Shown here piece after piece: positions 7,267 to 7,773 of a DNA stretch of 7,902 nucleotides. This stretch comes from a virus. The stretch is from positions 1-7,902 of the IMG/VR virus record IMGVR_UViG_3300005066_000231; one strand, written 5' to 3'. The notes under the pieces are model-generated. The model was not told the DNA's origin and did no database searches. It saw nothing but the letters and a program-made list of their open reading frames with translations. The position numbers were made by a program, and so were the translations under genes. Within the stretch, counting starts at the first letter, position 1. Each line of letters opens with the position of its first letter.

Positions 7267-7678
7267 TTCCAAAATCCCGACGACCATTAAAAAGCTTATC
7301 TATATGTAATAATTCACTCAAAACACGAATATCCTTGTGCGCAAATTTTTCGTGTTGAAAGATAAAAACAAGATCGTGGTTTAGCTGATTCTTTCCAAAA
7401 TGTCTGTGAGATATAAGGCTCTTAACTCTGTGATCAATACCTTTAAAACGTTCAGTAAAGTGGTCTATATATTCACAACCGTCATATATAACGAATGCTG
7501 ATTCGGTTATAAGCGTCCAATCACAATCAGGAATAGCCTTAAATGATTTCGGTAAAAAACTTTGATCATTTGTGTTATCTATGATGTTTGTATAAACGGG
7601 TTTACTCTGTAAAAGTGCCATTTCAATTGCAGTACAAGTTTTCCCTGAAATTGGAACACCAGTAATCAAAGTAATCAT
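7259..7678 (-). CDS. Stand-alone Zot-N-terminal-like P-loop protein (paralog of the pI NTPase domain, truncated)
   Basis: This is a 139-aa ORF with a GGGGGA SD about 4 nt upstream. It aligns to the N-terminus of the 396-aa Zot/pI in this window at three segments. These are ITLITGVPISGKT vs ILITGTPGSGKS (Walker A intact), FVIYDGCE vs IIFYDEAQ (Walker B Asp kept, Glu replaced by Gly) and SHRHFG..HDLVFIFQ vs VHRHTGHDIYFITQ. It has no TM or C-terminal domain. Confidence 0.8.
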   Translation of the reverse strand: MITLITGVPISGKTCTAIEMALLQSKPVYTNIIDNTNDQSFLPKSFKAIPDCDWTLITESAFVIYDGCEYIDHFTERFKGIDHRVKSLISHRHFGKNQLNHDLVFIFQHEKFAHKDIRVLSELLHIDKLFNGRRDFGNE

Positions 7679-7773
7679 TTATTCCCCCTACACTTGTAAA
7701 AATGTATGCATAAAATCAATTGACTTTCGAATGAATGACCGCACTTCTTGCACTTAAAATAAGACTGTGGCAT
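7675..7773 (-). CDS. 32-aa classical-zinc-finger-like (CCHC) mini-protein (MPQSYFKCKKCGHSFESQLILCIHFYKCRGNK)
   Basis: It is not in the ORF track. Its stop overlaps the ATG of the P-loop ORF as ATGA (7675-7678). An AGGA lies about 10 nt upstream of the ATG at 7773. The residues fit F-x-C-x2-C-x3-F-x5-L-x2-H-x3-C exactly, which is the C2H2 finger consensus with Cys as the fourth ligand. Confidence 0.5.
   Translation of the reverse strand: MPQSYFKCKKCGHSFESQLILCIHFYKCRGNK

Follow-up and report, generated by a model that had tools for sequence, protein, structure and literature searches.

Predicted single zinc-finger micro-proteins encoded first in the morphogenesis module of Acinetobacter filamentous phages

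IMG/VR record IMGVR_UViG_3300005066_000231 (7902 nt, analysed over its whole length and hereafter called the window) contains two very short open reading frames (ORFs), zf32 with the product MPQSYFKCKKCGHSFESQLILCIHFYKCRGNK and zf35 with the product MNIKYVHQSDIAECPKCFCLMHKNNIAFHMTKCGG, in which cysteine and histidine residues are spaced as in zinc fingers. Classical beta-beta-alpha fingers are a hallmark of eukaryotic transcription factors and rare in bacteria and their viruses. Are ORFs of 32 and 35 amino acids (aa) genes at all, and if so, which kind of finger do they encode and what might it do in a virus of this type? The window is an inovirus, as shown by its Pfam matches (G2P, Zot/pI, and DUF2523) and its Phage_Coat_B coat gene. 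Its nearest named relatives and every named homologue come from Acinetobacter, and a whole-genome megablast against GenBank phages gave no match. Judged by their conservation and substitution patterns, both ORFs are genuine protein-coding genes, and the comparative data and structure models together make it very probable that they encode real zinc-finger micro-proteins. Our literature search found nothing on zinc fingers in inoviruses, and the papers on Acinetobacter filamentous phages mention neither the ORFs nor zinc. The fold itself is known, but a family of stand-alone classical-type fingers of 26-40 aa with a conserved placement in bacterial single-stranded DNA (ssDNA) phages is undescribed.

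Coding potential and relatives of the micro-ORFs

As proposed in the initial annotation, zf32 follows the pattern F-x-C-x2-C-x3-F-x5-L-x2-H-x3-C exactly, with F6, C8, C11, F15, L21, H24, and C28 all in place, and zf35 has the Cys-Cys-His-Cys (CCHC) arrangement C14-x2-C17-x11-H29-x3-C33. The ATGA overlaps that had linked the ORFs to neighbouring genes are also present: the stop codon of zf32 overlaps the start of a P-loop protein gene, and the stop codon of a gene for a 106-aa protein overlaps the start of zf35. A chance origin of the motifs is unlikely. When the genome was shuffled 1000 times with dinucleotides preserved, one shuffle contained the strict classical-finger pattern, 40 had the looser C-x2-C-x11/12-H-x3-[CH] at least once, and none had it twice. 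zf32 is absent from gene calls, as determined by exact look-up. A fifth conserved Cys of zf32 (C22, codon 7708-7710) lies two residues ahead of the His ligand and is found in 58 of 81 distinct DNA sequences of zf32-type genes; this residue might serve as an alternative ligand, respond to redox state, or make a contact.

The first relatives were gathered without recourse to the motif, by collecting homologues of the P-loop protein and scanning the resulting loci (L004-L017) in six frames. These scans revealed diverged micro-ORFs with the same ligand pattern in L007-9 (MPHSYFKCKKCGHSFESQLILCIHFYQCRGNK), L016 (MFFYKCKKCGQQFRTHEFYTIHYYMCKA), L013/14 (MRILLMNGDNQAACPKCGSYFHKQALSFHMTRCFV), and L010/11 (MIYSNFLTYACPICGAYQHPKAYQFHVSACKG). 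Degenerate DNA patterns recovered the zf32 type, here family A (26-34 aa, C-x2-C-x12-H-x3-C), from at least 119 IMG/VR contigs and the zf35 type, family B (31-40 aa, C-x2-C-x11-H-x3-C), from 70; a common family A peptide is MTEYVYTCKKCGKKFTKHSSYCIHFYKCK. Across species-representative genomes totalling 596 Gb, a strict family A DNA pattern matched only nine stretches, and eight of these are from Acinetobacter. Among isolates, the Acinetobacter phage M02 carries an unannotated 37-aa family B ORF with intact CCHC ligands (OQ693633.1, 161-274, identified by tblastn). A tblastn search of family A peptides against GenBank phages produced no real match, and a homologue search with a concatenated 67-aa query yielded no candidates. 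The finger ORFs are likewise unannotated in four RefSeq "plasmids", which are inovirus replicative forms, and in most metagenome gene calls, and a few database copies are labelled "hypothetical protein [Acinetobacter ...]".

Because the first patterns required the ligands, the scans were repeated with patterns fixing non-ligand residues only. In these ligand-blind sets, C, C, H, and C occupied the predicted positions in all 44 family A sequences (21 distinct peptides), and the same four ligands plus a further His were found in all 44 family B sequences (27 distinct). ORF length was kept at 29-33 aa in family A, and the distance from a conserved GDNQ motif to the stop codon was constant in 43 of the 44 family B members. 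The ligand codons vary synonymously (TGT/TGC and CAT/CAC), and all four Gly or Pro codons are used. The extra His of family B (H22 in zf35) is not invariant, being replaced by R in P0062 and P0063 and by Y in one other member.

Nei-Gojobori ratios, which cover only the part of each ORF left free by the search pattern, point the same way. Family A has a pN of 0.245 and a pS of 0.695 (pN/pS 0.35, compared with 1.24 and 1.63 in the other frames), and family B a pN of 0.204 and a pS of 0.719 (pN/pS 0.28, compared with 1.05 in the one other frame computed). These values indicate that both ORFs are under frame-specific purifying selection. Thus, the three comparative checks envisaged in the initial annotation all came out in favour of genes: the four ligands are kept in diverged relatives, the frames are intact across many of them, and the substitution ratio is low in the finger frame and at least 1.05 in the other frames. 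Translation signals differ between the families. An SD-like (Shine-Dalgarno-like) motif lies 4-13 nt upstream of 37 of 60 family B genes, compared with 12% of background ATGs, and precedes 19 of 88 family A genes against the same background, so the motif in front of zf32 is weak evidence when taken alone.

Both families appear so far to be restricted to Acinetobacter filamentous (pro)phages. Finger genes were not found in the related lineages L001/L012 and L004-6, despite homologous P-loop, small membrane protein, and coat genes, and more distant inoviruses outside Acinetobacter have no room for one. The finger is therefore an accessory, genus-restricted component. L004, an inovirus without family A or B fingers, has a called gene of 58 aa past Zot (11942-12118) whose C-terminus reads C-x2-C-x11-H-x3-H and which may represent another finger type.

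Fold and zinc-finger class

Structure models and, for family A, profile matches indicate that zf32 and zf35 are stand-alone single fingers of the classical type, with a predicted beta-beta-alpha fold and a Cys in place of the last His. The classical spacing C-x2-4-C-x12-H-x3-5-(H) is found in zf32 and all of family A, and the x11 of family B is one residue shorter. The hydrophobic core is likewise present, with F6, F15, and L21 of zf32 corresponding to the family A columns Y/F, F, and Y/F/L. Since the fourth ligand is an invariant Cys and not a His, both families are CCHC variants as in NEMO, FOG, and MOZ, to which the C2HC fingers of BIRD-IDD proteins can be compared as well. With the Pfam model zf-C2H2 (PF00096), 30 of 36 family A members reach E <= 1 (best 2.5e-5), zf32 itself not among them. 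In the PDB, the family A profile finds single-finger C2H2 chains at E ~1e-5 and ZNF568 arrays at 3e-29, and its consensus YKCKKCGxxF...H resembles both a PDB finger (YKCKECGKxF...H) and the KRAB-ZNF consensus (YKCxECGKxF...H). Family B had no C2H2 profile match of the Pfam or PDB type and no significant sequence match to its structural neighbours.

AlphaFold2 predicts the beta-beta-alpha arrangement for both proteins. The zf32 model, computed from the single sequence, has a confidence (pLDDT) of 85, with residues 6-7 and 14-15 forming the strands and 18-30 the helix; in the zf35 model (pLDDT 77), the strands span 11-13 and 20-22 and the helix spans 23-32. The top Foldseek matches are all C2H2 or CCHC fingers (among them NEMO, MOZ, RAD18, WRNIP1, and TRAF6), with TM-scores of 0.7-0.8 to NEMO, RAD18, and WRNIP1; the root-mean-square deviation from these three and from TRAF6 is 0.4-0.7 Å. 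The zf35 model is nearest to the UBZ4 fingers of RAD18 and WRNIP1 and to TRAF-type and RNF125 C2HC fingers (root-mean-square deviation 0.4-0.8 Å over 23-25 residues). Together with the Pfam and PDB matches of family A, the models support the earlier suggestion that zf32 is a classical-type finger with Cys as last ligand. Most matches in an exhaustive HMMER search with zf32 were long proteins with many repeats; tandem CCHC or C2H2 arrays were among those inspected, and one of them, P0016, has eight repeats of F-x-C-x2-C-x3-F-x5-M-x2-H-x3-C.

Despite the identical spacing and core of zf32, these proteins differ from classical C2H2 fingers in more than the last ligand. In family A the finger is the whole protein (26-34 aa) and not a repeat in an array, it comes from a bacterial ssDNA phage, and helix positions 4-9 are conserved aromatic or hydrophobic residues instead of variable DNA-reading ones. 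UBZ4, TRAF, and RNF125 fingers share the C-x2-C-x11-H-x3-C-type spacing of zf35 but, unlike zf35, are eukaryotic modules that bind ubiquitin or other proteins; to our knowledge, Acinetobacter has no ubiquitin.

Several other small zinc-binding classes were considered and rejected. Mu Com, lambda NinF, and FmdB-type (Zn_ribbon_8) proteins are comparable as stand-alone small zinc proteins of prokaryotes or phages, and the N-terminal half of zf32 (MPxxYxCxxCGHxFE) resembles the first Zn_ribbon_8 knuckle. The Zn_ribbon_8 match, found in 30 of 36 family members, covers residues 1-17 of zf32 only (E 0.004, below the 34.4-bit gathering cut-off). Zinc ribbons of this kind have four Cys ligands in two CxxC knuckles; the finger proteins have one knuckle, followed by a predicted helix with H-x3-C. 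Membership in the Ros/MucR class (C-x2-C-x9-H-x3-4-H in a domain of ~58 aa) was rejected given the x12/x11 spacing, the protein length of 26-40 aa, and the missing Pfam match. Retroviral nucleocapsid (NC) zinc knuckles are also small, basic viral CCHC modules, and they recognise single-stranded packaging signals through exposed aromatic residues. Their spacing is C-x2-C-x4-H-x4-C, they adopt a knuckle and not a beta-beta-alpha fold, and they have no sequence relationship to the fingers; family B does contain C-x2-C-x4-H, but its next ligands follow as x6-H-x3-C. Neither family A nor family B is assigned to a family by Pfam or PHROGs, the best PHROGs match (E 0.0016) being to a family of unknown function.

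Genomic slot, attachment site, and possible role

Families A and B are alternatives for one slot, that of the first gene of the morphogenesis module. A gV-like ssDNA-binding gene, often followed by a dif-like phage attachment site (attP), precedes the finger gene, and a small protein, the coat protein, pIII, pVI, and pI (Zot) follow. The usual 3' neighbour of both families encodes a 57-66-aa protein with two conserved N-terminal Cys residues, one transmembrane helix, and a basic tail, which is highly divergent in alignments. The distance from the finger stop to the next start is typically 3-15 nt, or the genes overlap. Co-occurrence is rare (family B in 3 of 119 family A loci and family A in 1 of 69 family B loci), and because the two are almost never found together, they are considered functionally equivalent. 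The finger type is independent of the type of gV, replication protein (G2P or Rep_trans), and small membrane protein. The initial annotation had named the P-loop protein as a partner of the finger, a suggestion that does not hold in general: the P-loop gene lies downstream of only ~8 of 199 finger genes, and an obligate partnership was rejected on account of this rare co-occurrence. Homologues of the 106-aa protein are found downstream of finger genes in a few other loci.

The slot has a counterpart in Ff phages, where gene VII follows gene V and precedes the coat genes. The 33-aa pVII is similar in size to the fingers, and its gene likewise directly follows gene V, is coupled, and heads the coat-gene cluster. 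Homology to pVII or pIX was rejected, as the finger proteins are charged and lack a hydrophobic segment, whereas pVII is a hydrophobic membrane protein of the virion tip without metal ligands. A comparable case is PfsE of the Pseudomonas phage Pf4, whose gene we take to lie between the ssDNA-binding gene and the coat genes, a position equivalent to that of the finger. PfsE (PA0721) is a 30-residue accessory inovirus protein of the inner membrane that binds PilC via aromatic residues (PMC8764522). The fingers do not belong to this type of peptide either, having neither a transmembrane segment nor a YAWGW motif, and PfsE in turn lacks Cys/His ligands.

In the window, the XerC arm and spacer of attP are identical to the Acinetobacter chromosomal dif site, and the XerD arm is degenerate, departing from the chromosomal TTATGTTAAAT (dif list: PMC10132070). 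An integrated copy is found in L002, one of two JGI contigs (with L003) that are 99.9-100% identical to the window. Hybrid sites lie at both of its flanks (609-635 and 8420-8446), and in the right-hand one the XerD arm is of the host type (TTATGTTAAA). Xer-mediated integration, a mode proposed earlier for filamentous prophages of Acinetobacter (PMC11209303), would leave such sites, and the arrangement also points to tandem arrays with other inoviruses. In 67 of 70 assessable cases, a family A gene begins 26-29 nt past the dif-like site, and 28 of 55 family B genes begin at this distance as well; the other 27, including zf35, have none nearby, and some of these are located in phages with a tyrosine integrase (L013 and L178). 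The spacer AAATCAATAACTTA is kept in both family contexts. A promoter scan around attP showed no enrichment over shuffles. Separately, at least three different or repeated inovirus prophages are arranged in tandem within positions 1-16405 of L007, a 77-kb metagenome scaffold, with repeated G2P, gV, and Zot modules, an array that would fit repeated Xer integration into a single dif site.

How, then, did the window come to have two fingers? The initial annotation had described zf32 and zf35 as a paralogous pair. A relationship is apparent at the profile level, where hhalign aligns families A and B with a probability of 79% (E 1.6e-5, one gap), but the pair does not stem from local duplication, which was rejected because a mosaic origin accounts for it. 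From attP across zf32 up to the P-loop gene start, the window and L007 (7851-8080) have almost the same DNA sequence. The structural module from zf35 to Zot has 84%-97% protein identity to that of L164 and L184, in which gV and the small membrane protein gene have only a zf35-type gene (82% identical) between them and the replication module is of the Rep_trans and not the G2P type. Thus, the window is a recombinant that received one finger from each parent lineage. Other loci with two fingers are L122, with families A and B in direct tandem (3378-3473 and 3476-3583, 3 nt apart), L100, with a family B gene and an atypical A-like ORF, and L082 and L206, in which two different prophages in a tandem array contribute one finger each.

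Regarding function, we propose that the Cys2-His-Cys site binds one Zn2+ and thereby folds the peptide, and that the folded finger would serve as a small adaptor when virion morphogenesis begins, as opposed to a membrane-embedded capsid subunit. Its target may be a nucleic-acid structure, that is, an ssDNA packaging or intergenic hairpin or the operon leader mRNA, or else a partner protein on the cytoplasmic side of the assembly site. Of these, nucleic acid would be favoured by the constant slot and by the positive charge of family A (net +2 to +6, median +4, over ~30 aa, with a Lys-rich hairpin), and the retroviral NC knuckle can serve as a functional model for the ssDNA hairpin. Taken as a whole, the combination of zinc-finger identity and a role as morphogenesis adaptor seems reasonably probable to us. 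For the tie to the morphogenesis module as such, we see a chance slightly better than even, and nucleic-acid binding specifically is a tentative proposal that falls somewhat short of that. A bolder and less likely version would have the finger recognise the ssDNA packaging hairpin and replace pVII in its DNA-contacting role.

A number of observations weigh against this proposal. zf32 by itself has no Pfam zf-C2H2 match at E <= 1, the Foldseek E-values fall short of significance for a domain of this small size, and a clear SD is missing from most family A genes. The absence of any finger from L001/L012 and L004-6 implies that such virions can dispense with it. Family B is weakly basic (median +1), which weakens the case for a shared nucleic-acid role. 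In addition, only weak binding to duplex DNA is expected of a lone 29-aa finger that has no basic arms beside it, and CCHC variants of the classical finger (FOG, NEMO, and UBZ) mostly bind proteins.

This last property would suit an alternative in which the finger is a host-directed micro-protein that binds a host protein, such as the type IV pilus or another envelope part, and mediates superinfection exclusion or host modulation. The accessory nature of the gene, its absence from some close relatives, and its restriction to one genus would fit, as would the protein-binding nature of the CCHC, UBZ, and TRAF-type modules that include the best structural matches of zf35. The mosaic association with all types of gV, replication, and small membrane proteins suggests a partner common to all hosts. 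PfsE provides a precedent, but as an inner-membrane peptide with an aromatic YAWGW cluster it is analogous in position only (PMC8764522). Furthermore, the strong positive charge of family A is better suited to nucleic acid, and the co-existence of several different filamentous prophages in many Acinetobacter strains has been published as a lack of superinfection exclusion (PMC11209303). We regard a host-directed function as unlikely. It is quite unlikely, too, that family A fingers act on the attP just upstream, binding the site or XerC/XerD and coupling integration/excision or an embedded promoter to the morphogenesis operon. If true, this would make them a new Xer accessory or directionality factor and place them among the smallest autonomous sequence-directed DNA-binding proteins. 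The general form of this idea, a factor that binds the attP region or XerC/XerD and controls integration/excision or an overlapping promoter, follows a logic resembling that of XafT of TLC-phi or of Xis/Cox-type proteins encoded beside attachment sites. It draws on the near-constant distance between site and family A start, the conserved spacer, the degenerate XerD arm, and the hybrid sites that mark a working attP. We consider it improbable given the many family B genes without an adjacent site, some of them in tyrosine-integrase phages, and the apparent interchangeability of A and B; moreover, the adjacency may simply reflect the intergenic region between gV and the first morphogenesis gene.

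The tight packing of the finger against, or its overlap with, the next gene would also suit an RNA-binding translational regulator of the genes directly downstream. A model for this is Com of phage Mu, a small zinc protein whose gene immediately precedes mom and which opens the mom ribosome-binding site. The small size, the basic character of family A, and faint Zn_ribbon_Com matches in two family B members (E 0.08) are compatible with it, but Com is a 62-aa C4 zinc ribbon with another fold and other ligands, and the varying downstream gene (P-loop, 106-aa, or small membrane protein) leaves no common RNA target evident, so that a Com-like function appears very improbable. Finally, the ORFs might not encode functional proteins and might instead be chance frames, or frames held open in DNA conserved as attP flank, promoter, or coupling spacer. 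Their missing annotation in public records and the scarcity of SD motifs in family A could be read this way, as could the near-identical DNA of the window and L007 across zf32, where both of the only two differences are non-synonymous; being so similar, however, this pair alone is uninformative on selection. Set against this are the frame, length, and ligands kept over many diverged DNA versions, the dominance of synonymous changes in the finger frame only, the differing genomic contexts of the genes, and the rarity of the motif in shuffles, which together render the non-coding explanation barely credible.

As whole proteins consisting of a single finger of 26-40 residues, the reading of these ORFs as zinc fingers would place them among the smallest autonomous metalloproteins, and their small size makes for easy synthesis and testing. 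Conserved finger genes were retrieved from ~200 (pro)phage genomes of Acinetobacter, the genus to which the hospital pathogen A. baumannii belongs. Its filamentous phages were first characterised in 2024 and alter biofilm formation, motility, and antibiotic susceptibility. As the finger genes come first in the morphogenesis operon and mostly lie next to the Xer site, they are obvious candidates for a control function in assembly, packaging, lysogeny, or host interaction.

Gene map of the window and further observations

The window is a circularly permuted genome of ~7810 bp, in which bases 1-92 recur at 7811-7902, and almost all of its genes are on the minus strand (Table 1).

Table 1. Features of the 7902-nt window; empty cells, no entry
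Feature	Position	Strand	Basis or remark
108-aa gene in gV (ssDNA-binding protein) position	94..420	-	With G2P forms the replication module, which precedes the attP/finger region on the circle
G2P replication protein	431-1912	-	Pfam
Zot/pI, full-length	3417-4607		Pfam
DUF2523 (pVI-like)	4604-4921		Pfam
Major coat protein gene, 87 aa, Phage_Coat_B	6409..6672	-	Gene call and Pfam in L002/L003
57-aa small membrane protein (MTTYVC...)	6686..6859	-	Two conserved Cys, transmembrane helix, basic C-terminus; start 3 nt past zf35
zf35, predicted 35-aa family B CCHC micro-protein	6863..6970	-	C14, C17, H29, C33
SD-like AAGG	6980..6983	-	9 nt 5' of zf35 ATG
106-aa predicted membrane protein, accessory	6967..7287	-	Stop overlaps zf35 start
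139-aa stand-alone P-loop protein, Zot N-terminus-like	7259..7678	-	Pfam Zot, E 1.2e-5; start overlaps zf32 stop
zf32, predicted 32-aa family A CCHC micro-protein	7675..7773	-	C8, C11, H24, C28
SD-like AGGA	7784..7787	-	10 nt 5' of zf32 ATG
dif-like attP, ATTTCGTATAA-TGTATA-ATATGTTAAT	7802..7828	-	End 28 nt 5' of zf32 ATG

The P-loop protein resembles the N-terminal ATPase part of Zot/pI only, and a full-length Zot is encoded as well. Approximately 14 homologous clusters of 128-145 aa were found (P0002-P0014 among them), most without a source name; wherever a source is named, it is an Acinetobacter (pro)phage. The position of the P-loop gene relative to the finger gene is variable. Used as a query, the P-loop protein retrieved no related loci from genome or metagenome contigs, and the 106-aa protein none from viral contigs.

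L003 is otherwise identical to the window but lacks ~103 bp inside G2P (near 6836-6841, corresponding to window positions 880-984), which splits the gene into ORFs of 313 and 128 aa; either a defective variant or an error of assembly may account for this. Two ORFs of 67 aa each, at 2034-2237 (plus strand) and 2847-3050 (minus strand), lie between Zot and G2P and are called in L002/L003, without a Pfam match. The former, the only one on the plus strand, diverges from G2P and may encode a regulator.

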